The notes under the pieces are model-generated. The model saw only the letters and a program-made list of their open reading frames with translations, had not been told where the DNA came from and made no database searches. DNA of 64,000 nucleotides from Clostridiales bacterium (GTDB lineage: Bacteria; Bacillota; Clostridia; Lachnospirales; WRAX01), in contig JAISCI010000045.1 in NCBI GenBank assembly GCA_031265685.1, forward strand, positions 15,467 through 79,466, written 5' to 3'. Each line of letters starts with the position of its first letter. The first letter of the stretch is position 1. This document shows positions 20,614-63,185 of the stretch, in pieces. The translations under genes were made by a program, and so were the position numbers.

Positions 20614-20662
20614 TTGGCTGGTGTAAATGTCAACTGAAAAATCACCCACCCAATATAATTGA

Positions 20663-20955: not shown

Positions 20956-20982
20956 TTAATTTGGATGTAGCGTAAAGTGCAA

Positions 20983-22840: not shown

Positions 22841-22952
22841 GGGCGGCTTGCTTTCCGCGCCGGAACGACGCGCGACTTACGCGAATTCAAATCGCGTAGC
22901 TTGAATAACCGAAAAGCGATACAAGAAAAACGCGCGTCGCCTAAAGCCGCCC

Positions 22953-31590: not shown

Positions 31591-31618
31591 ATACTAATCT
31601 CTTGACTGAGAATAGTAT
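31591..31618. repeat. minimal ATACT-type inverted repeat at the flhG|pilZ junction
   Basis: ATACTAATCTC-ttgact-GAGAATAGTAT (imperfect). The right end runs into the flhG stop (31618-31620). Confidence 0.5.
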
Positions 31619-40498: not shown

Positions 40499-40640
40499 TA
40501 TACTGTTTCAGAATTAAGGCTGGCGTTTGTTTTGCAAGGTTCGCGCCTATGAAGTTCACTTGGATGAATTTTGCGTGATTCAAGCAAAATTCTGTCACGC
40601 CTTGAAAACAAATGTCACTGTTTGACCTTAAACAGTATTA
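40499..40640. repeat. fold-back element at the fliM|fliY junction
   Basis: TATACTGTTTCAG (40499-40511) pairs with AAACAGTATTA (40630-40640, includes the fliM stop). Inner arms are GTTTGTTTTGCAAGG and CCTTGAAAACAAATG. Core is GAATTTTGC-gtgattcaa-GCAAAATTC at 40566-40592. Confidence 0.85.
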
Positions 40641-41612
40641 ATCATCTTTAACGATAACCGAGGTTATCGCGACGGCGTTCCTGCCCTTGAATATACCCGG
40701 CTTCGCCTTGAACTTGCGGATATCCCCGACGAATATGTCGAGATCGTCGTTGGCGCGTCGGCCCAGCGGGATTATGTCCCCCGGGGCCAGCGACAGAAAA
40801 TCCGCTACCGTTATAGCTCCGCCGCCCACGACCGCCGTAAGCTGAACGCCCGTCTTCTCGAGCGAGTCCGATATGCCCGGCGCGAACGCGCCGTCTCCGC
40901 CGGATGACGCCCTGCCGAACCAGATCCGCGTGTTCAGCCTGTCGATAACCGGCTCTATGACGATATACGGCAGGCAGAAATTGATCCAGCCCGTCGTTTC
41001 GCCTATGCTGACGGACAGCGTGACGAGCGCGGTCATCTCGTGAGGCGCTATGATCTGGGCGAACTGAGAATTAGTCTCGAGCTTCGTTATCCTCGGCTCC
41101 ACCTTCGCGACGCTCTCCCAGGCTTCGGGGATGAACGACAGCATCTGCGTCAGCACGCGCTCGAGCAGTATCTTCTCAAGGTCCGAGAAATCGCGCGTTT
41201 TCTTAAGGCTAAGGCCCTGCCCGCCGAGTATCCGGTCGATCATGACATAGCCTATCTCGGTCGAAAGCTCCATTACGCACGTGCCCGAGAACGGCGCGAG
41301 GTCTATCATCGCCAGCGCGACAGGATTGACCAGCGTATTCTGGAACTCCTGGTAGCTGGCCTGTTCCGCGTTGGCGGCCTCCACGCTCACCGTAACGCGA
41401 AGATAGCCCGTCAGAAACGAGCTTATCATCCGCGCGTAATTATCGAACATAATATGAATCGAGCGCAGATGCTCCTTATTGAATTTGGACGGCCTGGCGA
41501 AGTCGTAGCTCTTGGCCTCGTGTCTCGGCTCCGGCGCGGGCGCTACGGATCCGCCGCTCGTAAGACTTCTCAGAAGCTCGTCTATTTCGCTTTGGGACAG
41601 TATGTCGCTCAA
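40638..41612 (-). CDS. fliM: flagellar motor switch protein FliM
   Basis: 324 aa, TTG start, MSDILSQSEIDELL CheY-binding N-terminus. SD GGAAAGGG upstream. Confidence 0.95.
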   Translation of the reverse strand: MSDILSQSEIDELLRSLTSGGSVAPAPEPRHEAKSYDFARPSKFNKEHLRSIHIMFDNYARMISSFLTGYLRVTVSVEAANAEQASYQEFQNTLVNPVALAMIDLAPFSGTCVMELSTEIGYVMIDRILGGQGLSLKKTRDFSDLEKILLERVLTQMLSFIPEAWESVAKVEPRITKLETNSQFAQIIAPHEMTALVTLSVSIGETTGWINFCLPYIVIEPVIDRLNTRIWFGRASSGGDGAFAPGISDSLEKTGVQLTAVVGGGAITVADFLSLAPGDIIPLGRRANDDLDIFVGDIRKFKAKPGIFKGRNAVAITSVIVKDD

Positions 41613-41639
41613 ATCTTACGACCCTTTCCGACCGCTGAT

Positions 41640-41666
41640 ACTGATTCCGTTTAGAACGGAATCAGT
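41640..41666. repeat. minimal hairpin (terminal arms only) at the fliL|fliM junction
   Basis: ACTGATTCCGTT-tag-AACGGAATCAGT, a 12-bp perfect stem that abuts the fliL stop (41667). The arms match those of 47056-47243. Confidence 0.8.
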
Positions 41667-42140
41667 TCAACCTATATACAGGGAGCGGATATATACCCGC
41701 GTTATCATGTCCGTCTCAAACGTCTCGCGCAGCGCCGCGAGTATCTTATCGCTGAGCGTCTCCGAGGCGTCCGCCCCGGACAGATCCTCGGCGGTGCATT
41801 TACGGATCACCGACAGCACCGCGGATTTAATCGCCGCATCGGATTCCGCCAGCTCGCCCATAATAGCCTCGTTCGCCTTTTTGTCGGCGGCCGAAACCGT
41901 GAAGCTAACGTCGGTGGAAATGACGTGATCCTTCCCGTCCCGCCCTTTAAGCAGATTGGTCTTGAACGAGTCCTTGATGTCGTATGTCGTTACCGGTATG
42001 TTCTCCTTATCCGCGGGCGGCGCGCCGGATTCCCGCCCCGAAAACGCGCCCACGGTGTATATCGTCAGCCCGGCCAGCCCGCCGAGAATGACGATAAGCA
42101 GCGCAATGATCACTATCATCAATGGTTTGCCCTTATCCAT
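41667..42140 (-). CDS. fliL: flagellar basal-body-associated protein FliL
   Basis: ATG 42140 (MDKGKPLMIVIIALLIVILGG) with SD GGAG 8 nt upstream; the ORF track starts at 42158. Single TM plus a FliL-type C-terminus. Confidence 0.85.
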   Translation of the reverse strand: MDKGKPLMIVIIALLIVILGGLAGLTIYTVGAFSGRESGAPPADKENIPVTTYDIKDSFKTNLLKGRDGKDHVISTDVSFTVSAADKKANEAIMGELAESDAAIKSAVLSVIRKCTAEDLSGADASETLSDKILAALRETFETDMITRVYIRSLYIG

Positions 42141-42159
42141 GAACACCGCTCCATTCATC

Positions 42160-42324
42160 CTAATCCCGTTTTAGAGTACAGACAATATTTTTCAAGTCCG
42201 CGCCTTAACCAAGGTCATTTTCGCGTGACAGAAGTTTGCCTGGTTCACGCAAACTTCATCCATACGAAAATTCATTGCGCGCGCCGCTTTGAAAAATCTT
42301 GTCCGCTGATTTAATCGGGATTAG
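42160..42324. repeat. fold-back element at the motB|fliL junction (TAATCC-type termini)
   Basis: CTAATCCCG (42160-42168) pairs with CGGGATTAG (42316-42324). Inner arms are ATATTTTTCAAG and TTGAAAAAT. Core is GAAGTTTGC-ctggttcac-GCAAACTTC at 42231-42257. The right arm lies inside the last motB codons. Confidence 0.85.
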
Positions 42325-43024
42325 TAATATCCGCGTTTCCGCCGATTACCTTGATCTCGACTCTGCGGTTTTTTTCGCGCCCCTCGGGCGTGCCGTTCGA
42401 TTCGCGCGGGCGCCACTCGCCGTAGCCGACGGGCTTTAGTCGGGCGGGATCGACGCCATTCTCGGCGAAGAACGCCGCGACGCCCGCCGCCCTCGCGCAC
42501 GACAGAACCCAGTTGTCCTTCCACTGCCCGGACAGCACCGGCAGATCGTCGGCATGGCCCTCTATCTCCACCGCCGAACCGGGATACCCCGAGAGCGCCG
42601 CCGCCACTTCCATAAGCAGCGCCCGGGCGGAGCCGTTCAGCTCGGCGCTGTCCGCCTCGAACAGTATGTCGCCGGGCAGAGCCGCGCGGACGTACTCCCC
42701 GCCGACTATCTCCACTTCCGCGCCCCGCGCCGACAGCCTGCCGAAAGCTTCGGCTATGTCCGCCGCTACTTTCTCGAGAGCTGACGTTTCGGTTTCGGCC
42801 GCCGGGGATTCGGACGTAACCTCGGGCGTCACGGGCGGCGGTCCCGCCGGAAGATCCTCCGCTCCGATTTCAATAACCGCGGTTTCTACCGGTTCGACGA
42901 AGTCCGACAACTGAACGCCCGAAGCGCTGAGGAAGACGAAGAAACACAGCAGCAGCGTCGCCACGTCCGCGTATGTTACCAGCCAGCCGTTTTTGTCAGA
43001 CGGCGGCTTTTTCTTTGACGGCAT
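42311..43024 (-). CDS. motB: flagellar stator protein MotB (OmpA-like C-terminus)
   Basis: 237 aa. WLVTYADVATLLLCFFVF plug/TM region with the conserved Asp; an OmpA-like domain ending NRRVEIKV, followed by an added tail. Confidence 0.9.
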   Translation of the reverse strand: MPSKKKPPSDKNGWLVTYADVATLLLCFFVFLSASGVQLSDFVEPVETAVIEIGAEDLPAGPPPVTPEVTSESPAAETETSALEKVAADIAEAFGRLSARGAEVEIVGGEYVRAALPGDILFEADSAELNGSARALLMEVAAALSGYPGSAVEIEGHADDLPVLSGQWKDNWVLSCARAAGVAAFFAENGVDPARLKPVGYGEWRPRESNGTPEGREKNRRVEIKVIGGNADITNPD

Positions 43025-43766
43025 CCCTGAACCGCTCCTCCACGTCCCTTGGCGGCCTGCCGTCCCTGACGTCCGCCACCGCTTCGGCGATGACCCGCAT
43101 CAGCCCTGTCTCCGTCTCGTTAAGCAGCGTCAGCCTGCCCGCGATCGGCTCGGCGGCGAAATGCGATATTATAACGCCGTAGAACGTCGTTATAAGCGCC
43201 GTCGCCATCTTGGGACCCAGCGCCGCCGTGTTGGTAAGGTCGTTTAGCATCAGCACCAGGCCGATCAGCGTTCCGATCATGCCCCAGGCGGGCGCGGCCT
43301 TCGCGATATATTCCCAGACGGCGCGAACCCTCTGGTGACGCTCGTCGGTACGCGCTATGGCGGTCTCCATGGCGGCGCGTATCTCGCCCGCTCCCGCCCC
43401 GTCCGCGACCATCAGCAGGCCGCCGCGCACAAACCCGTCGTCCACGGCCTGGGCGGCTTCCTCCAGCCGGAGTATCTGCCCGCGCCGCGCCAGACGCGCG
43501 ATCCGCGTCAGTTCTTCGGCCGCCGCGCCCGCGTCGCGCGCGTCCGGGCGGAAAACTTTCCGGGCCGCCCGGAAGGCGTTCATAATATCGCCGACGGGGT
43601 GGGCGATGAGCGTTCCGGCGGCGCACCCGCCAAAGACGATCAGAATCGACGCCGGGTCGAAGAACGACTTCAGCGTAAGCCACACGTCGAACCCCGTCCC
43701 GAGCAGAACCGAAAACACTATGAACACGAACCCCGCCGCGAAGCCGATCACCGCCGAAAGCTCCAT
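42996..43766 (-). CDS. motA: flagellar stator protein MotA
   Basis: 256 aa, 4 TM. C-terminal segment of MotA/TolQ/ExbB type (APAWGMIGTLIGLVLML). Confidence 0.9.
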   Translation of the reverse strand: MELSAVIGFAAGFVFIVFSVLLGTGFDVWLTLKSFFDPASILIVFGGCAAGTLIAHPVGDIMNAFRAARKVFRPDARDAGAAAEELTRIARLARRGQILRLEEAAQAVDDGFVRGGLLMVADGAGAGEIRAAMETAIARTDERHQRVRAVWEYIAKAAPAWGMIGTLIGLVLMLNDLTNTAALGPKMATALITTFYGVIISHFAAEPIAGRLTLLNETETGLMRVIAEAVADVRDGRPPRDVEERFRDAVKEKAAV

Positions 43767-43782
43767 CTTATCGCCTTACTCC

Positions 43783-45204
43783 CTATCTCTTGAGATTGAC
43801 CAGTTCCTGCAGCATGTCGTCGCTGGTCGTTATGACGCGCGAATTGGCTTGGAAACCGCGCTGCGTCGTTATCATCTCGGTAAATTCCTGCGCCAGGTCC
43901 ACGTTGGACATCTCCAGGACGCCCGCCATGATGTCGCTGCCCGCGCCCGCCTCCACGCCGACGCCGTCGAAGTCGCCGGAGTTGGACGTCGCGCGGTACA
44001 GGTTGTCGCCGATGCGCTCGAGGCCCGTCGGGTTCTTAAACTGTGCCAAAGCCACCTGCCACAGCACCTTCGACTGACCGTTTGAGTAGTACCCCGTCAC
44101 CTTGCCGTCCGACCCTATCGAGATACCGTTCAGCACTCCGCTGACGTTGCCGTCCACTGTGACGGCGGAGGCCGTGGCGATGCCGCTGAACTGCGTAAGC
44201 TCGCCCGTCGAGACGATTATGCTCGGCGCGAAGTTGGCCGGGGGGCTGATGACGCCCGCCGAGTCGTCCACGACCAGCTGCAGCGACGTTATCGAGCCGG
44301 ACGCCGCGCCCGAGGCTATGTCCGGCAGTCCGTCGGCGGTGAACTTTATCACCGCGCCCGGAGCGTCCGTGAAGGTGACTGGGCTGGCGCTGTCCGCCGC
44401 CGTGGCCGCGCGCGTCGTAAGCTGGGCCGCCACGGAGTTTCCGCCGGCCAAATCGCTCGCGATGCCCGTCCCCGCGCCTATATTCAGCATGACCACGCTG
44501 TTCGGGTCGCCGTTTACCGTGGCGCGGTCGGCCAGCGCCACGCTCCACTGCTTGTTCGTGTCGTCGTAGCGCAGCCGCGCCTTTATCGTGTATTCGTTGC
44601 CAAGCGAATCGAAGAACGATATGCTCGTCTCCTTCTCCTTGTCGGTGACGGCGTTCAGGTTGCCCGTCAGCCGCACGTAGCTCGTCGAGTTCGGCATGAC
44701 GTACTCGTCGTCCCCCGATATCTGGATGCCGCGCGTGTTGGTCTTGGGTACCTCGCGCGTGCCGGGGATCGTCCCGTCGATCGCCTTCCAGCCGTTCAGG
44801 ATCAGCCCGGACGACGTGACCAGGTTGCCGCTCTCGTCCAGGCGGAAGGCCCCGGCCCGCGTGAAGTATGTACCGCTGCCGTCGGAGACGATGAAGAAGC
44901 CTTCGCCCTGGATCATCAGGTCATAAGGGTTGTCGGTGCGCTGGGCGGCGCCGTTGGTCATCGACTGGTCGATCGAGGCCACGTTCGAGCCAAGCCCGAT
45001 CTGCATCGGGTTGCGCCCGCCGCGCGCCGTGTTCGGGTTCGCGCCCGAAGCGCCCTGAACGGTCTGGCTGAATATCTCGGAGAACGTGACGCGGCTCGAC
45101 TTGAAGCCCGTCGTGTTCACGTTCGAGATGTTGTTGGCGATAACGTCCATCTTTGTCTGATGGACGCGCAGTCCGGACACACCGGAAAACATTGAACGCA
45201 TCAT
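43783..45204 (-). CDS. flgE: flagellar hook protein FlgE
   Basis: 473 aa with MMRSMFSGVSGLRVHQTKMDVIANNISNVNTTGFK at the N-terminus and the conserved C-terminus LEMSNVDLAQEFTEMITTQRGFQAN. Confidence 0.95.
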   Translation of the reverse strand: MMRSMFSGVSGLRVHQTKMDVIANNISNVNTTGFKSSRVTFSEIFSQTVQGASGANPNTARGGRNPMQIGLGSNVASIDQSMTNGAAQRTDNPYDLMIQGEGFFIVSDGSGTYFTRAGAFRLDESGNLVTSSGLILNGWKAIDGTIPGTREVPKTNTRGIQISGDDEYVMPNSTSYVRLTGNLNAVTDKEKETSISFFDSLGNEYTIKARLRYDDTNKQWSVALADRATVNGDPNSVVMLNIGAGTGIASDLAGGNSVAAQLTTRAATAADSASPVTFTDAPGAVIKFTADGLPDIASGAASGSITSLQLVVDDSAGVISPPANFAPSIIVSTGELTQFSGIATASAVTVDGNVSGVLNGISIGSDGKVTGYYSNGQSKVLWQVALAQFKNPTGLERIGDNLYRATSNSGDFDGVGVEAGAGSDIMAGVLEMSNVDLAQEFTEMITTQRGFQANSRVITTSDDMLQELVNLKR

Positions 45205-45764
45205 ACCGCTTCCGCCTCCCCCGTCTGTTCCGCCGTGTCCGCCGCCTGTTCCGGCTCGTCAGCCGTCTTTTCCGGCTCGTAAGCCGTCTTTTCCGGCTCG
45301 TAAGCCGTCTTCCCGGAACCGCCGATTATATCGGCCAGTTCCTGGTCGAATATATACACCACGTCGGACAAGCTGATCTCCGACCCGCCGACCACGAGAT
45401 ACGGCGTATTGTTCCTCATCGACACCGCGTCCACGCGCCCGCCGACCGAATAGACAGTCCCCGTAACCGTGTCGGCTACGTCCGCCGCGATATACTTTCC
45501 GATCATCGCGAACGACTGGGAGCTGACCATGGCGGCGTTCATGTTCTGCATCTGCTCCAGCGCCGAGAACTGCGCCATCTGCGCGATAAACGTCTTATCG
45601 TCCGTCGGGTTCAGCGGGTCCTGATACTGAAGCTGCGTCACGAGCAGCCGCAGGAAGTCGTCCTTGCCCAGATCGTTTCCCGTTTTGGCCGCCGTCCGGC
45701 CCGTCTCCGCCAGCCCGGGCGCGTATGTCCCGACGAGCGCCGAATTCGTTAGCGTTTCCGCCAT
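45201..45764 (-). CDS. flgD: flagellar hook assembly (capping) protein FlgD
   Basis: 187 aa with FLRLLVTQLQYQDPLNP and FIAQMAQFSALEQMQNMN motifs. The C-terminal tail carries 7-aa repeats. Confidence 0.9.
   Translation of the reverse strand: MAETLTNSALVGTYAPGLAETGRTAAKTGNDLGKDDFLRLLVTQLQYQDPLNPTDDKTFIAQMAQFSALEQMQNMNAAMVSSQSFAMIGKYIAADVADTVTGTVYSVGGRVDAVSMRNNTPYLVVGGSEISLSDVVYIFDQELADIIGGSGKTAYEPEKTAYEPEKTADEPEQAADTAEQTGEAEAV
45249..45311. repeat. 3 x 21-bp tandem repeat in the flgD 3' end
   Basis: TTCCGGCTCGT(C/A)AGCCGTCTT three times in a row. It encodes KTAYEPE/KTAYEPE/KTADEPE in the flgD frame. Confidence 0.9.
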
Positions 45765-45775
45765 GTTCGTCCCCC

Positions 45776-47035
45776 CTATGCCGTGTAGTTTACTATAGCG
45801 TCGGTGTGCGCGGCGGCTTCCGAGTATCCCGAAGATGCCGCCAGGGTATCCGCCAGGCGGCGCCGATACCCCGGGCGGTACCCGGACCGGCTGTCGCGCC
45901 CGCCCGCCTTTTCGCCGCCGACTGAAACCGACATGCTCTGTATATTGACGCCCTGGCGGGACAACTCCTCGCGAAGGCTGTTAAAACCCGCTTCCAGCGT
46001 CTCCTTGACGCGCTGGTTCTCCGCCACGAACTGTGCCGTGACCACGCCGTTACGCTCCGTGATCCTCATCGTCACGTCGCCCAGCGACTCCGGGCGCAGC
46101 GTCACGCGCACTTCCCGCGTGTCGCCCCGATACTCGACCTTCAGCCTGTCGATAACCTGAGCCACGGGGTCCTTGGGTATATCCGGCGCCGCGGCGGGGA
46201 TATCGGCGGCGGGTTCCGGCGCCCGCGCGGAAACCGCAGGGATTACGTTCGCCGTCCGGACCGGGGTTTCCTGAATAAACGCCGCGTCCGGACCGTACTC
46301 GCGCTCTTCGCCGCTCTCGCTCCGGGGCTTTTCGACCGAGGCTGGAGCGGCAGCTTCCCGGCTCGGGAGCCTGGCGGGATCTTCGGCCGGACGTTCCGCC
46401 GGGTCTTCCGCGTCCGCGTCGGTTACGGGCGCTTCGGCCGTATCCGCGCGGATGAAATTCGGCTTGCCTATGGCGTCGGCTTTCCCGTCCGGCTTCGTCC
46501 TTACGGCTGATGCCTCCGCCGCGTCATTATAACCGGCAAGAATATTATTCGTTATATCGGCTGTATCGGCGGCTGTGGGAGCCGATTCCGGATCCGTCTC
46601 GGCGGATACCTCCGCGACCCGGGCCGCAAACGCCGCCAGCTTCTCCGGCATTATCAGCTCGAGCGGCCTCGCGCTGACCGCCGCCAGCGCCTGCATGATG
46701 ATTTCCGCCGGAAGACCCAGCGCCGCCGCCAGTTTTTCGATTATTTCCTGGGAAACGCCATCATCTTCCTGCTTCTTCTCGCCGCCGTCCCGCTTGACCG
46801 GCGGTTTTCGCGACGGCTTTTCGGCTTGGGCTTCGGTTTCGGGCTTCTCGGCCGCTTCGTCTGTTTTGGGCTGGCCGGCCCGCTCCTTCGTGGCGTCCGC
46901 GCGATTCGCTGATTGTTTCTCCGTCTGGACCCTGCCGAGGTATTCGCCGAAGCCTTCCTCCGGCCTTACCGGCCTTACGGAAGCCGCCGACGGTATGCCG
47001 CCAATCGCGCCGCCGAACAATTCCGTCACTGTCAT
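45776..47035 (-). CDS. fliK: flagellar hook-length control protein FliK
   Basis: 419 aa. Ala/Pro/Glu-rich low-complexity ruler plus a C-terminal Flg_hook-type domain (VRVTLRPESLGDVTMRI..VTAQFVAENQRVKETLE). Confidence 0.85.
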   Translation of the reverse strand: MTVTELFGGAIGGIPSAASVRPVRPEEGFGEYLGRVQTEKQSANRADATKERAGQPKTDEAAEKPETEAQAEKPSRKPPVKRDGGEKKQEDDGVSQEIIEKLAAALGLPAEIIMQALAAVSARPLELIMPEKLAAFAARVAEVSAETDPESAPTAADTADITNNILAGYNDAAEASAVRTKPDGKADAIGKPNFIRADTAEAPVTDADAEDPAERPAEDPARLPSREAAAPASVEKPRSESGEEREYGPDAAFIQETPVRTANVIPAVSARAPEPAADIPAAAPDIPKDPVAQVIDRLKVEYRGDTREVRVTLRPESLGDVTMRITERNGVVTAQFVAENQRVKETLEAGFNSLREELSRQGVNIQSMSVSVGGEKAGGRDSRSGYRPGYRRRLADTLAASSGYSEAAAHTDAIVNYTA

Positions 47036-47055
47036 AGCGCCACATCCTTGTCTGT

Positions 47056-47243
47056 TATACTGATTCCATTTTGATCGACGTTTGATGTTGTCTTAGACAA
47101 CATCAAGCCGTCTTCTTGAAGGACGCCGAATATTTTTTCGGTCCGCGCCTGAAGCCGCGCGGTGGAAGTTTGCGTGGACCAAACAAACTTCCGACGCGCA
47201 AGCTCGAAAAAATATTCGGCACAAATCTAAATGGAATCAGTAT
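47056..47243. repeat. fold-back element at the ylxF-like|fliK junction (longest flagellar copy)
   Basis: TATACTGATTCCATTT (47056-47071) pairs with AAATGGAATCAGTAT (47229-47243). Palindrome GATGTTGTC-tta-GACAACATC lies at 47084-47104. Inner arms are CCGAATATTTTTTCGG and CGAAAAAATATTCGG. Core is GGAAGTTTGC-gtggaccaa-ACAAACTTCC at 47164-47192. Confidence 0.85.
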
Positions 47244-48025
47244 CAATCCGGCGACATGAATTTCGCGGCGGCGGCGGCGTTGTCCGGATCCATCTCCGCC
47301 ATAATCCCGCCCCTTGCCGCCGCGTTCATGCCGAGCAGTATCCTCGTAACCAGATCCATCTCCGTCGCCGTCAACCGGTCCAATATTCTCGCGGCGCTTG
47401 CCTCGTCCATCTCGGCGAACGCCGCCACGTAGTCCCGCGCCGCCTTGTCCGCGTCCCGGATCGCGGCGGCCTTGGGGTAGAGCGATTCCGCCGTCTGCGG
47501 GTTGATCCGCTCGTAGAAGTCGGCATACGCGGAAGGACTGCCCATCGCGATCTTCTCGTCGAACTCGGCCGCGCGGGCGTTTATCTCCGGCTCTTTCGCC
47601 AGCGCCTCGCTAAGGCGCCCGCGCAGGTTCGTTATCTCATCGACATATATATCGGTTTTTCCATTCAGTGTCTCAATTTCTTCTTTATATTTTAATATTT
47701 CGGACTCCATCCCGGCGATCCGCGCCGCGGCTTCCCCCGGGGAGAGCGCCTGTTCCCCGGGCGGTTCCGGAGACAGCATATTGCCGATTATCGGTATTTT
47801 CCGGACAATGCCCGGTATCGTCCTCGTGCGGACGCCGCCGGCGTCTAACGCGACGACCAGCGCCGACGCCCCGATCAGCGCCGTGATAACCAGAACCGGA
47901 ATCAGCGCGCCGCGCCGCTTGCGCTTTACCGACCGCCCGGCGGATTTCCCCGGGGACGCCCCCGCGCCGAACCGCGCGTCCGCCCCGCCCGCCGCCGAGC
48001 GCTCCTTAACCGCCGTATCAGCCAT
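47243..48025 (-). CDS. YlxF/MotE-like flagellar operon protein with an MgtE_N-like domain
   Basis: 260 aa. N-terminal TM, coiled coil, and C-terminal FAEMDEASAARILDRL..ILLGMNAAARGGIMAEMDP. Position between fliJ and fliK, as for B. subtilis ylxF. Confidence 0.65.
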   Translation of the reverse strand: MADTAVKERSAAGGADARFGAGASPGKSAGRSVKRKRRGALIPVLVITALIGASALVVALDAGGVRTRTIPGIVRKIPIIGNMLSPEPPGEQALSPGEAAARIAGMESEILKYKEEIETLNGKTDIYVDEITNLRGRLSEALAKEPEINARAAEFDEKIAMGSPSAYADFYERINPQTAESLYPKAAAIRDADKAARDYVAAFAEMDEASAARILDRLTATEMDLVTRILLGMNAAARGGIMAEMDPDNAAAAAKFMSPD

Positions 48026-48466
48026 CTACTCACCCCTAAAGAACCTGTACGACCCAACCTCGTCGGAGATCTTCTGTTCGCTCCGTTTCTCGGCTTCGTT
48101 ATATTCCTCGCGCTTCCTGTCGCGCAGCGTCTCCAGCGCCTTCCTGTCGCGCATACGCTCTATCAGCTCTTCGCGGCGCTCGTCAGCCGCCCGCGCCGCT
48201 TCGCTCACGGCTTTGTCCTGCCTGGCGGCGTCCGAGCGCAGCCGCGCCATATATCCGCCGTACAGCAGCAGTTCCCCGGGCGAAGGACGTTCCCGCGCCG
48301 CGTCGCGGAAGGATTCCAGCCCTTCGGACTGTCTTTCGGAGATCTCCGCGCGGACGTGTTTTTGCCGCTCCAGTTCGGCCACGGCGCGTCCGTATTCGTT
48401 TTTTTTCTGGTTCTCCAGCTTCTCTCGGACGCCGAGCAGGCCGCCCAGCCGGAACCGAAACGCCAT
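48026..48466 (-). CDS. fliJ: flagellar export chaperone-like protein FliJ
   Basis: 146 aa coiled coil beginning MAFRFRLGGLLGVREKLENQKKNEY; position after fliI. Confidence 0.85.
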   Translation of the reverse strand: MAFRFRLGGLLGVREKLENQKKNEYGRAVAELERQKHVRAEISERQSEGLESFRDAARERPSPGELLLYGGYMARLRSDAARQDKAVSEAARAADERREELIERMRDRKALETLRDRKREEYNEAEKRSEQKISDEVGSYRFFRGE

Positions 48467-48480
48467 GCGATCACTTCTCT

Positions 48481-48605
48481 TAATCCTATTTAGATTTGTA
48501 GATAAAATTTTTCAAGCGTCCGCGCGGTTTTGAAGTTTGCTTGGTTCACGCAAACTTCTCAGGCGCGGACTGGAAAATTTTTATCCGTCCTTTAGAATAG
48601 GATTA
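48481..48605. repeat. fold-back element at the fliI|fliJ junction (TAATCC-type termini)
   Basis: TAATCCTATT (48481-48490) pairs with AATAGGATTA (48596-48605). Inner arms are AAAATTTTTCAAG and GGAAAATTTTT. Core is GAAGTTTGC-ttggttcac-GCAAACTTC at 48532-48558. The right 25 nt lie inside the fliI 3' end. Confidence 0.85.
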
Positions 48606-49918
48606 GTCTTCAATATTTGTTCCATCCGTTCTACCGTCTCGCCGAAATCGGCCTTCTCGTCGGTTCTCTGCGTCAGGAACGCCTTTATACCGGCGTTTTT
48701 GGCGACGGCCTCGTCTATCTCCGCGCTCGCGCCCTTGGCGTAGGCCCCTATGTTTATTAGATCCTCGGCGTCGGCGTAGACGGCCATCAGACGCTTTATC
48801 TCGCGTGCGGCGGCCTTGTGCCCGTCCGACGCGACGTCGCCCATGACGCGGCTCACGCTCGCGAGAACGTCTATCGCGGGGTAGTGGTTCCTGTTCGCCA
48901 GCTTGCGCGACAGCACGATATGCCCGTCGAGTATCCCGCGCGACGTGTCCGTTACGGGTTCGGTCAGGTCGTCGCCGTCCACGAGGACGGTGTATATGCC
49001 CGTTATCGAGCCTTTCGCGCCCTTGCCAGCCCGTTCCAGAAGCTTCGGCAGGGCGGCGTATACCGACGGCGTGTACCCCCGGCTTACCGGCGGTTCGCCT
49101 GTCGCGAGACCCACCTCGCGCTGCGCCATCGCGTACCGCGTCAGCGAGTCCATCATGAGCAGCACGTCCCGGCCGCCGGCGCGGAAATACTCGGCTATGG
49201 CCGTCGCCGTCTCGGCGGCTTTCAGGCGTATGAGCGCGGGCTTGTCGCTTGTCGCCACGACCAGCACGGAACGGGCCAGTCCTTCCTCACCCAAATCCTT
49301 CTCGATGAATTCCTTTACTTCCCTGCCGCGCTCGCCGATCAGCGCGATGACGTTGATCCCGGCCCTGGTATTCCGGGCTATCATGCCCATCAGCGTGGAC
49401 TTGCCCACGCCGGATCCCGCGAATATGCCGATCCTCTGGCCTTTGGCGACGGTGATAAGCCCATCCAACGCGCGCACGCCCAGCGGCAGCGGATCGGTGA
49501 TCCGCGCGCGCTCCATAGGGTCGGGCGGGGTATTCGCTATTGGGACGGGAACGCCCGCGACGGCGCTCTTGCCGTCCGACGGCGCCCCAAGCCCGTCGAG
49601 CACGCGCCCAAGCAGAGCGTCCGAAACAGTCACGGATAACGGCTCGTCGCTGGCTTCCACCGCCGAACCGGGACCTATGCCCGAAATATCGCCGAGCGGC
49701 ATGAGCAGTATCCGGCTGCCGCCGAAACCGACCACTTCCGCCGGGACGGGCTGCGCGCGCTTGCCTGCGCGGATGAGGCAGCGGCTGCCGATCGGAACGT
49801 CCGGCCCGACCGACTCTATCGTCAGTCCGGCTACCCGCTCGACGCGTCCGGCGCGCTTTATCAGGCTTTTCGCTATCGCCGCGCGGTATTTATATACGTC
49901 AACCGCCGTCGTCCCCAC
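48581..49918 (-). CDS. fliI: flagellum-specific ATPase FliI
   Basis: 445 aa with Walker A GSGVGKST and Walker B LLMMDS. Confidence 0.95.
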   Translation of the reverse strand: MGTTAVDVYKYRAAIAKSLIKRAGRVERVAGLTIESVGPDVPIGSRCLIRAGKRAQPVPAEVVGFGGSRILLMPLGDISGIGPGSAVEASDEPLSVTVSDALLGRVLDGLGAPSDGKSAVAGVPVPIANTPPDPMERARITDPLPLGVRALDGLITVAKGQRIGIFAGSGVGKSTLMGMIARNTRAGINVIALIGERGREVKEFIEKDLGEEGLARSVLVVATSDKPALIRLKAAETATAIAEYFRAGGRDVLLMMDSLTRYAMAQREVGLATGEPPVSRGYTPSVYAALPKLLERAGKGAKGSITGIYTVLVDGDDLTEPVTDTSRGILDGHIVLSRKLANRNHYPAIDVLASVSRVMGDVASDGHKAAAREIKRLMAVYADAEDLINIGAYAKGASAEIDEAVAKNAGIKAFLTQRTDEKADFGETVERMEQILKTNPILKDG

Positions 49919-50642
49919 CGCCCATTATCGCGAACAGATTGCGCTTCAGAGTCTCCAGCTGCGTGTCCGCCGATACGTCCACCGAACCGAACGGCGTCTC
50001 GATGACGGCATCGCCGTCCTCGAACGACGGGTCGGCGGTCAGCTCCAGCTTGGCCCCGCCCGCCGCGCCCGACAACTCGTCCATACGACCGGCGATTTCG
50101 CCGTAACGGGACTTCGATACGCGGATCGCGGCGACGCCGGTTATCGTCTTGTCGGAGAGGCCCTTTCGTATCATCGCCAGTATCGCGTCGCCGCCGAACC
50201 TGACGGCTCCGCCCACGATACTCTCGCAAATCTCCGCGATAAGCCCGACCAGTCTCGGTTCCGCCTCGGCTATTATCTCGTCTCGGCGGCGTATGGACTC
50301 GGACAGCGCGTTTTCGGCTTCCGCGCGGAGCTTGTCGGCTTCGTCCCGGGCGTCGGCAAGGCCGTCGGCATAGCCCCTCTCCCGCCCGTCAAGCTCGGCT
50401 TCCCGCCGTATGCGCTCGCTCTCCTCCCGCGCGGCGGCAAGCTCCCGCTCCGCGTCCGCCTCAGCCGCCGATACTATCCGCCCGGCTTCTTCCCGCGCCG
50501 CCGCCAGTATGTTCCCGGACAAGTCCGGGGGCGGTTCCGGCGCGGGCGCGGGTCCCGGTTCCTCGGGAATGCCGGGCGCTCTCGCTATATAGTATCTGTC
50601 GTCGGACAGATTAACATGCGGGGCTTTGAGAACGCTAGACAA
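49899..50642 (-). CDS. fliH: flagellar assembly protein FliH
   Basis: 247 aa. Glu/Arg/Ala-rich coiled coil plus a FliH-type C-terminal domain; position between fliG and fliI. Confidence 0.8.
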   Translation of the reverse strand: MSSVLKAPHVNLSDDRYYIARAPGIPEEPGPAPAPEPPPDLSGNILAAAREEAGRIVSAAEADAERELAAAREESERIRREAELDGRERGYADGLADARDEADKLRAEAENALSESIRRRDEIIAEAEPRLVGLIAEICESIVGGAVRFGGDAILAMIRKGLSDKTITGVAAIRVSKSRYGEIAGRMDELSGAAGGAKLELTADPSFEDGDAVIETPFGSVDVSADTQLETLKRNLFAIMGGGDDGG

Positions 50643-51672
50643 TTATCTCGTCCCCCCCGCCCCTAGCGACGATAATCTCGCCGGCGTCCTGCAGCCGGCG
50701 GATGATGTTCACTATCTTCTGCTGCGCCTCGTCCACGTCGGACTTGCGCACCGGACCCATATACTCCATGTCCTCGCGGATCATGGCCGACAGCCGCTTC
50801 GAGATATTCGCGAGTATCACGCCTCGCACCTCGGCGCTGGCGCCCTTCAGCGCCACGGCCAGCTCGCGGTTGTCGATATCCGAACGCAGGACGGTCTGGA
50901 TCGAGCGGTTGTCCATCGTGATGATGTCCTCGAATACGAACATCTTGCGTTTTATCTCCTCGGAGAGATCGTAGTCCTCGCCGGCGAGCGTCTCCATAAT
51001 GTTCTTCTCGGTGGCCCGGTCCACGGCGCTGAGTATCTCGACCACGGCGTCCACGCCGCCGACCGTCGTGTAGTCTTCGGTCATGAGGCTCGAGAGCCGT
51101 TTCTCGAGCGCTCGCTCGACTTCCTTCACTACTTCGGGGCTGGTCCTGTCCATCGTGGCGATGCGCCGCGCCACGTTCGTCTGGAGCCGCGGCTCCAGCT
51201 CGGCCAGCACCTGCGCCGCCTGCTGCGGGCGAAGGTACGACAGTATCAGCGCGATAATCTGCGGATGCTCGTTCCGGATAAAGTTAAGCACCTGCGTCGG
51301 ATCGGCCTTGCGCACGAAATCGAACGGTCGCGTCTTAAGCGACGCGGTTAGTTTCAATATGACCTGACGCGCGCGCTCCGGGCCGAGCGCCTTCTCGAGC
51401 ACCTGTTTGGCGTAGTTCAGCCCGCCCTCCTCGATGTACCGCTGCGCGAGGCATATCTGGTAGAACTCGTCCAGCACCCGTTCCTTGACGTCGGGCATGA
51501 CGGCGGCTATGTTTGAAATCTCCAGCGTCAGCGACTCGATCTCGTCTTCCTTCAGATGCTTGAATATCCTCGCGGATTTCTCCGGCCCGAGGGATATGAG
51601 CAGTATGGCCGCCTTCTGCTTGCCCGAAAGGCTGTCCAGTTTTTTCCCGCGTTCCAGCGCGGCGGTCGGCAT
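50635..51672 (-). CDS. fliG: flagellar motor switch protein FliG
   Basis: 345 aa with LSGKQKAAILLISLG at the N-terminus, an MFVFEDI motif and a charged torque helix region. Confidence 0.95.
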   Translation of the reverse strand: MPTAALERGKKLDSLSGKQKAAILLISLGPEKSARIFKHLKEDEIESLTLEISNIAAVMPDVKERVLDEFYQICLAQRYIEEGGLNYAKQVLEKALGPERARQVILKLTASLKTRPFDFVRKADPTQVLNFIRNEHPQIIALILSYLRPQQAAQVLAELEPRLQTNVARRIATMDRTSPEVVKEVERALEKRLSSLMTEDYTTVGGVDAVVEILSAVDRATEKNIMETLAGEDYDLSEEIKRKMFVFEDIITMDNRSIQTVLRSDIDNRELAVALKGASAEVRGVILANISKRLSAMIREDMEYMGPVRKSDVDEAQQKIVNIIRRLQDAGEIIVARGGGDEIIV

Positions 51673-51676
51673 ACTA

Positions 51677-53308
51677 TCACTCCCAATCGTCGTTCAGCCA
51701 GTTGCGCATCAGCGCGGCGGCCGCCTCGGGCTTCTCGTCCACCAGCTTGTCAAGCTGCCGCCTCATGTCCGATTCGAGTCCTATCTCAATCTCGCTCAGT
51801 TTCTCGGGTTCGGGCCGCGACGGCTCCTCCGGCTGACCGCTCATAAGCAGTTCCTCCACCGAAAGCTCCGGCTCGATCTCCTCATCCGCGACGGGTTTCG
51901 CCCGGCGCAGCAGGCCATACGCCAGAAGGATGATCAGCAGAGCCAGCGCGGCCATCGTAACGATCTGGCTGAGGGCCATTGGCGCGGGCGGCGGCGCGTC
52001 CGTAAACACCGGCACCATGTACCCGACTACGGAGAGGTTCTTTATCCCCGTTCCCATCTTGAGCGACTCCGCGAAGTTCTGATCAACGGTAAACTCCGAA
52101 GGCTTCGTATCGGCTTTGAAGTCCGCCCACGTCGTCCCGTCCAGCTTGCCTTGCGCCTTCATGTCGGCCTCGGCGTAAGGGGCGTACCGGTACACGTATA
52201 CCGACATGCTGGAGTCTCCGGCCAGCATGTTGCCGATCTGCCCCGTCTTGTTCTGCTCGACGACATTATAGATGTAACTGGCTTCCTTCTCGTTCAGCGA
52301 GGAGGCGCTTGTCTCGCCGCCCTGCATAACGTATGTCGGAGTCTCCTGGTTGTTGGCGCCGACGCCCGGCTCGCCGCCCGCCGCCGTCCCCGACGAGGAC
52401 GACTTGCTCGTCTTTTCGCTGTCGGTGAATCCGCTCGCGGCTTCGTCCCCCAAGGGGTTCGTGTACGTGCGCGACTGCTCCGAGATTGTGTCCCAGTTGA
52501 ATCGCAGATTGAATATTATCGACGTCTCGTCGAAGAGCGGGCGCGCGGCGCGCTTGATCTCGTCCTCGAGAGCGCTCTTCATCAGCGACTCGGCCTCGAA
52601 CTGCGTCTTTATGCCGCCGCCCGCCGCCGCCGAGCCGCCCGAGAACAGCATGTTGTAGTTCTGATCGGTTATCTCGACATTGGATACGTCAAGATTCTTG
52701 ACGCTTCTGGCCACAAAACGGGCGACGGCCTCGGCCTGCCCCGCGTCGAGCTGCCCGTCCGTCTCGACGAGCACCGCCGCCGTAGCCTCCGCTTCCGGGA
52801 GGAAGAAGTTGGTGTCTCCGGGGATGACGAGCTGGACGCTCGCGGCGCGGACGCCCCTCATCTTGCCGATTATTCCCTCCAGCTCGGTCTGCTTGGCTTT
52901 TTTCAGGTTCTCATTCTTGATCGTATCCGTCGTACCCATCGACGAGTATTCCAAGGCGTCGTAATAGGTGAATTTATTGCCGGAGAACACGTTCGCCGTC
53001 TCCAGCGCCAGCCGCGCCTGCCCCAGGTCGCGGGAATTGACACGCAGCGCCGTGCCGTTCTCAGCCAATTCGGACGCTATGCCCGCGCTGTCAAGGGCGC
53101 CCTGGGCCGACACTATCGTCGCCGCGTCCTGATTGTTGACGAGAACGTACATAGCCGGGCGAAGCGTCAAATAAACGGTTATACCAAGGGCGACAAGGAA
53201 TACCGCCGCGATTATGATTATTCGGACGCGCCGGCTCGCCTCTATTCCGTTCCATTTCGCCAACGCGTCGCCGGCTGCCGCCTTAATCCTGTCCAGCATT
53301 CCGTTCAC
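51677..53308 (-). CDS. fliF: flagellar MS-ring protein FliF
   Basis: 543 aa. Two TM segments flank a large periplasmic domain; acidic C-terminus (FliG-binding). GTG 53308 or ATG 53299 could be the start. Confidence 0.9.
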   Translation of the reverse strand: MNGMLDRIKAAAGDALAKWNGIEASRRVRIIIIAAVFLVALGITVYLTLRPAMYVLVNNQDAATIVSAQGALDSAGIASELAENGTALRVNSRDLGQARLALETANVFSGNKFTYYDALEYSSMGTTDTIKNENLKKAKQTELEGIIGKMRGVRAASVQLVIPGDTNFFLPEAEATAAVLVETDGQLDAGQAEAVARFVARSVKNLDVSNVEITDQNYNMLFSGGSAAAGGGIKTQFEAESLMKSALEDEIKRAARPLFDETSIIFNLRFNWDTISEQSRTYTNPLGDEAASGFTDSEKTSKSSSSGTAAGGEPGVGANNQETPTYVMQGGETSASSLNEKEASYIYNVVEQNKTGQIGNMLAGDSSMSVYVYRYAPYAEADMKAQGKLDGTTWADFKADTKPSEFTVDQNFAESLKMGTGIKNLSVVGYMVPVFTDAPPPAPMALSQIVTMAALALLIILLAYGLLRRAKPVADEEIEPELSVEELLMSGQPEEPSRPEPEKLSEIEIGLESDMRRQLDKLVDEKPEAAAALMRNWLNDDWE

Positions 53309-53323
53309 CCCGTATTACGATTC

Positions 53324-53473
53324 ATACTGTTTCAGAAGTAAGGTTGACATTCGCTTTTAAGGTTCGCGACCATGAAGTCCGCGTGGACGAAGTTCACGTG
53401 AACCACGCAAAATTCCGTCACGCGAAAATTACCTTCTTAAAAACAAGTATCACTGTCTGAGCTGAAACAGTAT
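53324..53473. repeat. fold-back element at the fliE|fliF junction
   Basis: ATACTGTTTCAG (53324-53335) pairs with CTGAAACAGTAT (53462-53473). Inner arms are GACATTCGCTTTTAAGG and CCTTCTTAAAAACAAGTATC. The centre contains degenerate core units (GAAGTTCAC-gtgaaccac-GCAAAATTC). Confidence 0.85.
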
Positions 53474-53474
53474 C

Positions 53475-53780
53475 TTACATCGAAAGCCGCATTATTTCCT
53501 TATAGGCTTCCACGGCCTTGTTCGTAACCTGCACGGTGAAAGAAAGCGCGGCGTAAGCCTTTTCCTGCGCGAGCATTACCGACAGCATATCGTCGGAGTG
53601 CCCGGCGGCGAAATCCAGCTGCGCCCGGTCGGCCGCCAGCTGATAGTCGTTGGTCTGCGCGATCAGATTCGTGTATGAGTCAAAGAAATACTCGAAAGGC
53701 TGCGCGTCCTTCTCCCCGGCGGATTCTCCGGCGAGCGGCGCCAGCGGCGCGAACGACGCGCCCACAGCGTTAACATACAC
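53475..53780 (-). CDS. fliE: flagellar hook-basal body protein FliE
   Basis: 101 aa, GTG start. The C-terminal NKAVEAYKEIMRLSM is typical of FliE. Confidence 0.85.
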   Translation of the reverse strand: MYVNAVGASFAPLAPLAGESAGEKDAQPFEYFFDSYTNLIAQTNDYQLAADRAQLDFAAGHSDDMLSVMLAQEKAYAALSFTVQVTNKAVEAYKEIMRLSM

Positions 53781-53798
53781 TCAGATCAGTCCTTTCGT

Positions 53799-53895
53799 TA
53801 TACCGTTTCAGGATTAAGGCTGACATTTGTTTTTAAGGTTCACGCGAAAATTACCTTCTTAAAAACAAATGCCGCCGTACAACCTGAAACAGTAT
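53799..53895. repeat. fold-back element at the flgC|fliE junction (no core module)
   Basis: TATACCGTTTCAGG (53799-53812) pairs with CCTGAAACAGTAT (53883-53895). Inner arms are GACATTTGTTTTTAAGG and CCTTCTTAAAAACAAATG. The right end overlaps the flgC stop. Confidence 0.85.
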
Positions 53896-54329
53896 TATCT
53901 CGAGATTTCCAGCGTCCTGCTGATCATGGCCTTAGACGAGTTGATCGCCGTAACGTTCGCCTCATACGAGCGCGTGGCGGATACCATGTTCACCATCTCG
54001 ACCACGATATTTACGTTCGGCTTGGTAACATACCCGTCCGCGTCCGCGTCGGGGTGGCCGGGCTCGTATACGCGCGTACCCTCGGCGGTATCCTCCGCTA
54101 TCTGAGATACCCGCACGCCGCCGGAAGCCCCCGAGAGCGCTCCCTTCAGATAATCGGCGAATTCGGCGGCGGGCTTCTCCCGGAACACAGCCGTCTTGCG
54201 CCGGTACGGCCCTCCCGTTTCGGTTCGCGTCGTTTCGGCGTTGGCGATGTTCTCCGATATTAAATCCATGCGCAGACGCTGGGCGGTCAGGCCCGAAGCC
54301 GATATGTCCATTGCCCCGAAAAATCCCAC
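53895..54329 (-). CDS. flgC: flagellar basal-body rod protein FlgC
   Basis: 144 aa, GTG start, with DISASGLTAQRLRMDLISENIANAETTRT at the N-terminus. Confidence 0.95.
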   Translation of the reverse strand: MGFFGAMDISASGLTAQRLRMDLISENIANAETTRTETGGPYRRKTAVFREKPAAEFADYLKGALSGASGGVRVSQIAEDTAEGTRVYEPGHPDADADGYVTKPNVNIVVEMVNMVSATRSYEANVTAINSSKAMISRTLEISR

Positions 54330-54342
54330 AGACGCCCCTCCT

Positions 54343-54383
54343 TATACTGTTCTCAACCAAGCGATAGATTGAGTTGAGAATAG
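54343..54383. repeat. short ATACTG-type inverted repeat at the flgB|flgC junction
   Basis: TATACTGTTCTCAAC-caagcgatagattga-GTTGAGAATAG (one mismatch). It lies between the flgB stop (54390) and the flgC SD AAGGAGGGG. Confidence 0.7.
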
Positions 54384-54389
54384 CCTTGG

Positions 54390-54782
54390 CTATCTTATCC
54401 CTGTTATCGCCAGATTGAGCCGCTTGTAATTATTGACGACTCCGGAAACCAGCGTATCGTAGCGCGCGCCGTTTTTGTAGAGTTCTGTCATCTCGGACTC
54501 TATGTCCACGTTGTTGCCGTCGATCCGGTATTCGTAAGAGCCGTACTCAGTGTAGATCTCCGGGCGCGCGGACAACGCTTTCGACGCGTTTCGCGCGGTA
54601 ATCCGCCCCCCCTCCTCGCCCAGCGCCTTCGCGAAGTACTCCTCGAAAGTCACGCCGGACTTCTTGAAACCCGGCGTGTCGGCGTTCGCTATATTGTTAG
54701 CGATAACGCCGTCACGCTTCTCGGCGGCCGCCATTGCGAGTCCGAGCGCGTCGTTCTGCAGAAACATCGTGCCGAATATCAT
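54390..54782 (-). CDS. flgB: flagellar basal-body rod protein FlgB
   Basis: ATG 54782 (MIFGTMFLQ..) follows SD GGAGG at 7 nt; the ORF track extends to 54803. Contains the IANNIANADTPGFK motif. Confidence 0.9.
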   Translation of the reverse strand: MIFGTMFLQNDALGLAMAAAEKRDGVIANNIANADTPGFKKSGVTFEEYFAKALGEEGGRITARNASKALSARPEIYTEYGSYEYRIDGNNVDIESEMTELYKNGARYDTLVSGVVNNYKRLNLAITGIR

Positions 54783-54884
54783 TCGTTCGCCTCCATCCAT
54801 CATGAGAGCGTTTTTTTGCCATAAATAGTATGCTCAATTTACGTCTATTGATTAATCATTTTCATCCCCATCGGCGCGAAAAAA

Positions 54885-54944
54885 GGCGAAAAAATAAAGC
54901 CGACGGAATCCGCGTCCATTATCTTCGCCCATTCCGTAGGCTTT
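54885..54944 (-). terminator. intrinsic terminator after purD, upstream of the flagellar operon
   Basis: On the minus strand AAAGCCTACGGAAT pairs with ATTCCGTCGGCTTT (14 bp, one mismatch, 21-nt loop), followed by ATTTTTTCGCCTTTTTT. Confidence 0.6.
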
Positions 54945-54960
54945 ATTCTCTCCCTGCCAT

Positions 54961-56223: not shown

Positions 56224-56858
56224 CCAATTCCACCTTTACCGATTATCTCCGCTCTCCCGCCGGACACCCGCAGCCGTCCCTCGCAGAACAGCCGCGCGGC
56301 TTCCGGGTATATCTCCCATTCGGCTTCCTCCATGACGCGCCGCTGAAGAATCTCCGGCGTGTCGCCCGCCTCTACCGCAACGGCCTTTTGCAGTATGATC
56401 GGCCCGGCGTCCGGCTCCTTGGCGGCGAAATGGACGGTCGCGCCCGTTACTTTGACGCCTTTCGCGAGAGCGGCCTCGTGTACGCGGATACCGTACAGCC
56501 CAGCGCCGCAGAAAGACGGTATCAGCGACGGGTGAACGTTCATGATCCGCTCCGGGAACGCGTCCAGAAAAGTACCGCCGAGTACGGTCATATATCCGGC
56601 GAGCAGCACAAGCTCCGTCCCGAACGATTTGAGATCGTCCGCGAGCGCCGTCTCGAAAGCTTCGGCGTCCGGATAATCCCCGCGGCGGACGACTCGGGAC
56701 GGGACGCCGTAACGCGCCGCCCGCGTGAGCGCGTACGCCCCGTCCCGGCTCGAAATCACCCGGACGACCCGCCCGGGTATATACCCCGACGCGCACCGCG
56801 CGAGGATCCTCTCCAGATTCGTGCCGCCGCCGGATACGAGCGCGGCTATATTCAGCAT
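56220..56858 (-). CDS. purN: phosphoribosylglycinamide formyltransferase
   Basis: ATG 56858 (MLNIAALVSGGGTNL) is preferred to the GTG at 56867. Contains the NVHPSLIPSFCG motif. Confidence 0.9.
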   Translation of the reverse strand: MLNIAALVSGGGTNLERILARCASGYIPGRVVRVISSRDGAYALTRAARYGVPSRVVRRGDYPDAEAFETALADDLKSFGTELVLLAGYMTVLGGTFLDAFPERIMNVHPSLIPSFCGAGLYGIRVHEAALAKGVKVTGATVHFAAKEPDAGPIILQKAVAVEAGDTPEILQRRVMEEAEWEIYPEAARLFCEGRLRVSGGRAEIIGKGGIG

Positions 56859-57880: not shown

Positions 57881-57898
57881 CCCTTGTCCCCCTAGTCT

Positions 57899-61656: not shown

Positions 61657-61766
61657 TGTCGCCCTCCCAAAATAATGATTGAGTTTTTTTACCCATGTGA
61701 TATTATAATACTAGCTCGTTGGTTTTACAAAGAAAATTTTGTGATTGTCGAAAATAAGGAGATAAC

Positions 61767-62411: not shown

Positions 62412-62465
62412 GGGGATAACCCCCCTCAATAGACCTCCCGTTAATCGGCAATTTACGCGGTAAGT

Positions 62466-63122: not shown

Positions 63123-63185
63123 AAAAATTATTTATTATATATACAGATTTGACCGTACAAAGTCTGATTGGCCCGGAGGGAACAT

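Follow-up and report, generated by a model that had tools for sequence, protein, structure and literature searches.

What are palindromes doing between the genes of a tightly packed flagellar operon? The locus that raises this question lies in a stretch of 64,000 nucleotides (64 kb) of contig JAISCI010000045.1, which comes from a metagenome-assembled genome (MAG) of a Clostridiales bacterium. We call this whole stretch the window, and all coordinates refer to it unless another contig is named. Its minus strand carries a flagellar and chemotaxis cluster of 33 genes over 27 kb, from flgB to the sigD region, with identities assigned by Pfam. Nine junctions between these genes are filled by palindromes. 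We argue that the junction palindromes are probably copies of a lineage-specific, dispersed family of nested palindromic repeats, non-coding and presumably mobilised in trans, similar to MITEs (transposable elements of miniature size with inverted repeats) or repetitive extragenic palindromes (REPs). Judging from the sequence, this family is probably not peculiar to the flagellar operon but has spread through the genome, genes included.

It is worth establishing how unusual these junctions are. The original prediction, made from the letters of the window, described a tight operon of about 34 genes. The tightness is borne out, since 22 of the 32 cluster junctions overlap or are shorter than 20 nt, but the gene count is 33. 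The other 10 junctions are the nine with palindromes and a single 115-nt AT-rich gap beside sigD. All nine palindromes that had been proposed were recovered where they had been placed, and the names given to the flanking genes agree with Pfam for FlgB, FlgC, FliE, FliF, FliI, FliJ, FliK, MotB, FliL, FliM, FliY, FlhG and PilZ. The ylxF-like open reading frame has no Pfam match. The window has a GC content of 61%, and the junction palindromes are AT-rich (GC 0.29-0.45).

The nine palindromes had been described as having ATACTG...CAGTAT termini. Seven of the nine do have ends of the type ATAC(T/C)(G/A)...(C/T)(A/G)GTAT, but those at fliI/fliJ and motB/fliL end in CTAATCC...GGATTAG. The same two are the exceptions to the claim that each palindrome starts 0-9 nt after the upstream stop codon or inside it, as their first 25 and 14 nt lie within the upstream gene. 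We dropped ATACTG as a diagnostic terminus. The hexamer is over-represented in the coding DNA of the window generally (50 sites against 11.6 expected), so it is a weak marker. The signal is carried by complementary arms of 12-38 nt, not by the hexamer. The nine palindromes are in fact more than one element, with at least three types of outer arm around common inner layers and a 27-nt core hairpin (9-N9-9). All nine beat their dinucleotide shuffles when folded, with z from -3.6 to -10.9.

Type A has the outer arms ATACTGTTTCAG and is found at three of the junctions, all nine of which are described here on the minus strand. The copy at flgC/fliE (53799-53895, 97 nt, z -9.2) begins with the last base of the flgC stop codon. 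It has outer arms ATACTGTTTCAGG/CCTGAAACGGTAT, middle arms ATTTGTTTTTAAG/CTTAAAAACAAAT and half a core unit at its centre. The copy at fliE/fliF (53324-53473, 150 nt) has the same outer and middle arms around a 2+2 array of 12-nt core arms. The third lies at fliM/fliY (40499-40640, 142 nt). Type B has the CTAATCC...GGATTAG arms. At fliI/fliJ (48481-48605, 125 nt, z -8.2) its TAATCC...GGATTA ends enclose an inner GC clamp and the core GAAGTTTGCGTGAACCAAGCAAACTTC, and at motB/fliL (42160-42324, 165 nt, z -8.3) the ends are CTAATCCCG...CGGGATTAG. Type C has the arms ATACTGATTCC. Its large form is a 188-nt composite at ylxF-like/fliK (47056-47243, z -10.9) with the ends ATACTGATTCCATTT...AAAATGGAATCAGTAT. 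It joins a core module to a second hairpin module, GATGTTGTC-TAA-GACAACATC, which is also present at 3352-3486. Its minimal form at fliL/fliM (41640-41666, 27 nt, z -7.6) is a 12-bp stem with a 3-nt loop, made of the arms of the ylxF-like/fliK element with nothing nested between them. The last two of the nine are short hairpins: one of 41 nt at flgB/flgC (54343-54383, z -3.7), which ends in CAGTATA directly 5' of the AGGAGG of flgC, and one of 28 nt at flhG/pilZ (31591-31618, ATACTATTCTC...GAGATTAGTAT, z -3.9). These share just 5-6 terminal bases with the others, so their membership of the family is weak.

The long copies are built in layers. From the outside inwards these are the outer arms, middle arms (GACATTTGTTTTTAAGG or an A/T-rich stretch), often a GC clamp GCGCGG...CCGCGC, and then at least one 12-nt core arm GAAnTTTGCGTG set opposite its complement across a 3-nt centre. 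Four of the inverted repeats (I4, I5, I7 and I11) have arms of 19-44 nt that are 71-95% complementary. Family elements range from 27 to 319 nt, and stop codons break most of their reading frames. Type-A copies differ from each other by one internal block (alignment A2). Across the 64 kb, type A has four copies, and type B, type C and the 135-nt type have two each.

The core is what unites these types. The same inner core sits within different outer arms, as seen in the six copies of a 56-nt stretch that make up repeat family D1, and the 27-nt core is identical between a type-A copy beside luxS and the type-B copy at fliI/fliJ. A 9-N9-9 core had been proposed, and it stands: the pattern AANTTYGCBTGRWYCANGCRAANTT occurs at 6 window sites (counted as 12 matches, because each palindrome matches both strands) and never in shuffles. 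In all there are about 11 sites of the 27-nt core in 64 kb, with 0 expected. We aligned 16 units, oriented by their own asymmetry, and counted base pairs on the alignment. Pairing is found in 88% of the stem cells, compensatory double changes occur at two positions (UA to GC and UA to CG), and in 13 of the 16 units one position holds a G·A mismatch. Relative to transcription, both orientations of the core are found.

If the palindromes were a flagellar feature one would look for them only in the flagellar operon. Family modules with 60-90% identity are found at eight further places, and related copies lie at the junctions luxS/FGGY, IMPDH/RNaseE/G, ntpB/LD-carboxypeptidase and NlpC/response regulator as well as upstream of ntpI. 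A full type-A fold-back occupies the gap between luxS and the FGGY kinase gene (1159-1296, plus strand, z -11.5); relative to transcription it has the opposite orientation to the flagellar copies. A 135-nt MITE-like element at 20822-20957 (plus strand) has 26-nt terminal inverted repeats, AGAACCTGTATTCATAGATGCAATCG and CGATTCCACTAATGAATACAGGTTCT. Between the genes for IMPDH and RNase E/G there is a 319-nt composite (3232-3550, minus strand), which consists of this 135-nt inverted-repeat element with internal blocks of 139 and 29 nt added. The two are about 95% identical over their common parts (alignment A1), and nesting in them reaches up to four layers. The 139-nt block is the hairpin module that is intact at the ylxF-like/fliK junction. 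Here, at 3364-3451, the module is split by a core-unit palindrome, with a short ATG/GATG duplication at the joint. An array of core arms around a 35-nt inner hairpin (22940-23115, 87% identical to 3364-3447) lies in a convergent intergenic region, and two tandem core units (12736-12794) lie upstream of the V-type ATPase operon. Divergent intergenic regions have copies too. Long family elements are present at 6 of 32 flagellar junctions and at 3 of 25 other co-directional junctions (Fisher p=0.72). The difference is still non-significant (p=0.20) when the three short hairpins are added. Downstream of ntpB, at 20640-20730, there is also a direct repeat of GAAAAATCACCCACCC and a hairpin of about 20 bp, AAAATCACCCACCCCCAAAAC...GTTTTGGGGGTGGGTGATTTT, probably a terminator.

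The original prediction held that the element survives only in intercistronic gaps. This is contradicted by the divergent and convergent copies above and by several copies inside genes. One of these genes is cheC, which has an in-frame insert of 60 codons (30429-30608, minus strand) made of tandem 15-nt core arms (EISRDRILSDRILSERILRDSSKIQSSKIQSSRIRPNKIRPGEIS...) followed by inverted copies (4 + 5). In the CheC fold the insert separates the two halves, and it shows up as an alignment gap against the solved structure 1xkr (query residues 105-164). A translated-repeat protein search for further copies found CheC itself as the sole match. A single core unit lies in the first codons of fliP (38614-38651). 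A TRAM-domain methyltransferase begins with two core units of 33 nt in tandem (63198-63268, plus strand), 11 codons each, which translate at its N-terminus as AISREPSEILK and AISREPGEILI. Reading frames run unbroken through all three of these inserts. Type B also provides coding sequence at gene ends. The final 8 codons of fliI and its stop (...TNPILKDG*) come from positions 48581-48605, and the final 4 codons of motB and its stop (...TNPD*) from positions 42311-42324, with the same frame used in both genes. FliI exceeds its counterparts in relatives by about 6 residues, and the tail residues are encoded by the element.

Another line of reasoning comes from relatives. FlgC is identical to protein MDR1209429.1 of an uncultured Clostridiales MAG (contig of 88.7 kb), and the next best homologues are only 70% identical. 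To judge from how the related MAGs are named, the sample may come from a termite gut. No close strain with a presence/absence polymorphism was found among the FlgC homologues. We compared eight relatives that are syntenic over purM/N/D-flgB-flgC-fliE-fliF; they are distant, with 64-70% FlgC identity. The window's elements are absent from all eight. Six have plain unstructured spacers of 7-104 nt, and the C-termini of FlgC and FliE are conserved up to the stop codon. The junctions that are occupied in the window are mostly those with spacers of 24-56 nt in the relatives, and overlapping junctions are unoccupied. The other two relatives, L020 and L021, have structured inserts of their own at flgB/flgC, flgC/fliE and fliE/fliF (137-447 nt, z -3.2 to -3.7; L021 727-1175 and 1618-1889, L020 459-597 and 926-1082). 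These include a 447-nt fold-back beginning 3 nt past the flgB stop, tandem-repeat-rich spacers and 14-bp hairpins, and they have no sequence likeness to the window's elements.

Taken this way, the selfish MITE/REP-like element that the original prediction offered as one of two readings holds in kind: modules occur in unrelated contexts, eight relatives do without the sequences, and an independent assembly of this DNA breaks inside the repeats. The copies would be insertions into ancestrally short junctions. An operon packed this tightly would tolerate insertions only between a stop codon and a Shine-Dalgarno sequence, or where they replace the last few codons of a gene. Such limited tolerance would account for the placement of all copies, which abut the upstream stop and leave 12-27 nt up to the next start. 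Within the flagellar operon, purifying selection would then have spared copies only in the narrow slots that permit them. Transcription of the flagellar mRNA should include the copies, which are predicted to form stem-loops that lack U-tails and have energies of -9 to -90 kcal/mol. If they behave as REP, ERIC and Correia elements do, these could be exonuclease barriers or RNase III sites, or could hinder ribosomes that terminate at the adjacent stop. It is plausible on this analogy that they affect decay, RNase III processing and termination-coupled translation. We infer that such effects on the mRNA would be side-effects of invasion and not a flagellum-specific design.

It must be noted that several points weigh against an invading repeat. 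No transposase or other mobilising gene, RAYT included, lies within the 64-kb window. No target-site duplication is unambiguous, as the TA that flanks most ATACTG-type copies is indistinguishable from an extension of the inverted repeat. The empty sites come solely from relatives as distant as those above. All five type-A and type-B copies within the operon have one common orientation. The inserts of L020 and L021, unrelated but at like junctions, could reflect selection for structure there. Finally, part of the architecture at least may grow in place. One can imagine the core unit inserting repeatedly into its own centre with target duplication. We rejected this scenario, since the spacer triplets are mirror-symmetric rather than direct and the numbers of arms are unequal (4 versus 5 in cheC, 4-5 versus 2 at ntpF/ntpA). 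As far as the sequences go, mirror-symmetric spacers and unequal arm numbers suggest slippage and hairpin-templated copying in the core arrays, not serial transposition. The ntpF/ntpA repeat (17327-17455) is unrelated to the family and has a like architecture: CATTGTAAACGC 4-5 times in tandem, then two inverted GCGTTTACA and a GC-rich hairpin.

The other reading offered by the original prediction is that these are co-opted RNA stem-loops. Selection would keep the hairpins because they segment the 27-kb transcript as decay barriers, processing sites or translation uncouplers, and so set subunit ratios. Very stable structures are placed exactly between a stop codon and a Shine-Dalgarno sequence, the most stable being the ylxF-like/fliK copy with a minimum free energy of -90 kcal/mol. 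The shared orientation of the five type-A and type-B copies suits this scenario as well, as do the inserts that L020 and L021 have in the same first junctions. Against it, folding energies of the two strands differ in both directions and are about equal overall, so the mRNA strand has no consistent advantage. Within the elements there are no terminator-like sites on the minus (mRNA) strand and no U-tails, and no element has on that strand the GC-rich hairpin plus U-tract of an intrinsic terminator. We considered the elements as promoters or terminators and dropped the idea, as they hold one weak promoter-like site on the mRNA strand, no enrichment and no terminators; no Sigma-D-type promoter was found in any of them. 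Masking of Shine-Dalgarno sequences was dropped likewise, the mean unpaired probability across sites being 0.33-0.74. Rfam 15 gave 0 matches at the gathering score over the whole window. With no U-tails or promoter excess, free Shine-Dalgarno sequences, no strand bias, cores in both orientations and no Rfam match, there is no signature of RNA-level selection. Like modules also stand at junctions of metabolic genes, in divergent and convergent spacers and in coding regions, and the flagellar operon is not enriched in them (p=0.72). Six of the eight relatives cope with short unstructured spacers, and the occupied junctions correspond to the 24-56-nt spacers in relatives, as expected of permissive slots. 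The proposal thus gained no positive support from enrichment, from folding of the mRNA strand, from terminators and promoters or from Shine-Dalgarno accessibility. The uniform orientation and the independent fold-backs in two relatives keep it alive, but we consider it unlikely.

Two further explanations do not involve RNA or mobility. The palindromes could be protein-binding sites at the DNA level, like the mosaic BIMEs of E. coli, bound by nucleoid proteins, gyrase or a dedicated factor, and their position in an operon would then be incidental to chromosome organisation. Two strands that are about equally structured overall agree with this, and a core G·A mismatch conserved in 13 of 16 units is what one would expect of a site read by a protein. 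Recognition by a transposase, or recent common descent, would lead one to expect such a mismatch just as well. Since no cognate protein was identified, and copies inside coding sequences and variable layering are more typical of selfish spread, we regard binding sites as decidedly improbable. The remaining explanation is that a metagenome assembler or the binning stitched the repeats into the contig. The source is a MAG, and repeats are known to confuse assemblers. An independent short-read Logan contig, L010, is 100% identical to window positions 53842-63235 over 9.4 kb, which takes in the flgB/flgC hairpin and half of the flgC/fliE element. Both of its ends fall within a core unit, which is what a multi-copy sequence should produce. 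CheC with its insert is matched exactly by a separate Logan-assembled protein record, and the reading frames are clean through the coding inserts. Independent reproduction of both the 9.4 kb and the CheC insert makes an artefact extremely unlikely.

If the dispersed repeat family is accepted, it is worth asking which known repeats it resembles. REP elements are known to stabilise upstream mRNA, as in malE-malF, and a REP within about 15 nt of a stop codon reduces translation of the upstream gene. The head of a REP or REPIN palindrome carries a conserved GTAG or CGTC tag. The window's core consensus, ATGAATTTTGCGTGAACCAAGCAAAATTC, has neither tag. Otherwise, like the REP/BIME elements of E. coli and the REPINs mobilised by RAYT transposases (PMC2817692, PMC3116915, PMC3337134), the elements here are short, multi-copy, imperfect palindromes in mosaic arrays of alternating orientation, with the 27-nt core as the short imperfect palindrome in high copy. 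In many cases REP/BIME elements, too, lie between genes within an operon and share their transcript. The differences are that the window elements are AT-rich in a GC-rich genome and that their location is not strictly extragenic, since copies are translated in cheC, fliP, the TRAM gene and the 3' ends of fliI and motB. The 12-nt core arms are not palindromes themselves, so the units are not REPIN doublets.

MITEs provide a second comparison. Bacterial MITEs located in operons or transcripts include Chunjie in Geobacter, Correia/NEMIS in Neisseria and ERIC in Yersinia (reviewed in PMC10969869). The elements described here are likewise small, dispersed (several copies within 64 kb) and without coding capacity, have terminal inverted repeats, and are tolerated between cistrons without breaking the operon. 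Internal blocks present in some copies and absent from others are another shared trait. The known MITEs are transcribed into hairpins that RNases cleave (PMC10969869), whereas the stem-loops here are predicted. The window's elements differ further in having several types of outer arm around common inner layers, and neither a parent insertion sequence in the window nor an unambiguous target-site duplication was identified for them. The Rickettsia palindromic elements (RPE; PMC10969869) are in-frame palindromic repeats translated as extra peptide segments. This is how copies behave in CheC (60 residues), FliP, the TRAM methyltransferase and the C-termini of FliI and MotB. The likeness drawn here is one of behaviour; the host phylum is different, and an RPE is a 100-150-bp element while the coding inserts of the window are built from 15-nt or 33-nt units. 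Searches of Rfam and of phage, plasmid and viral sequences turned up no described family with a similar sequence. In Streptococcus pneumoniae, BOX elements are modular and vary in how many internal units they have. The small dispersed repeats of Nostoc (SDR, a group cited in PMC3116915) are hairpin units of 21-27 nt, apparently mobile and nested in one another. The family is like BOX in its modular make-up and like SDR in its very small nested hairpin units; sequences and hosts differ, and both are likened by description only. The best reading is that it is a new addition to the known class of MITE/REP-like palindromic repeats.

The core unit is probably not confined to this genome. Two short phage-like contigs each have 3-4 copies of it, without any outer arms. 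In L001 (2779-3978), putatively binned to Oscillospiraceae, core units interrupt a PAPS-reductase gene, and in L006 (410-4942), putatively binned to Treponema, they interrupt a fragment of a portal-protein gene. The cores in both have the G·A mismatch and the ATG...CTT flanks seen in the window. A search of genome contigs with the core pattern gave at least nine loci, and the matches listed are mostly chance matches, apart from these two phage-like contigs. The type-A arm pattern gave only three chance matches among metagenome contigs, all in AT-rich genomes, and the pattern search gave 0 matches in viral contigs. A full type-A copy had no BLAST match in the phage and plasmid collections. One can imagine a bolder scenario in which the 27-33-nt core hairpin (ATG-GAATTTTGCGTG-AAC-CAAGCAAAATTC-CTT, with the conserved G·A mismatch) is itself a mobile unit of ultra-small size. 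An enzyme, possibly of the HUH type, would recognise it as a DNA hairpin, and it would pass from one lineage to another among the bacteria and prophages of a single gut habitat. It would enter genes in multiples of 11 codons and seed the layered, Russian-doll fold-backs. The first flagellar junctions would be recurrent sites of landing or retention in several Clostridia, structured RNA being advantageous there. We offer this whole scenario as a speculation and consider it doubtful.

On the preferred reading, the locus is a compact natural case of a long, packed and functionally demanding operon absorbing an invasion of palindromic repeats. The insertions persist in three settings only: between a stop codon and a ribosome-binding site, at the very 3' end of a gene, or in frame where the structure tolerates them. 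On present evidence this reveals no new regulatory principle for flagellar assembly. It does supply natural cases in which to ask what strong stem-loops between cistrons do to decay, processing and translational coupling in Clostridia. Short-read assemblies of the organism are also broken up by the repeats, which matters to users of such MAGs. A separate repeat in the cluster lies in coding DNA of the flgE/flgD boundary region, where the repeat search found three tandem 21-nt repeats at 45221-45304 (family D12).

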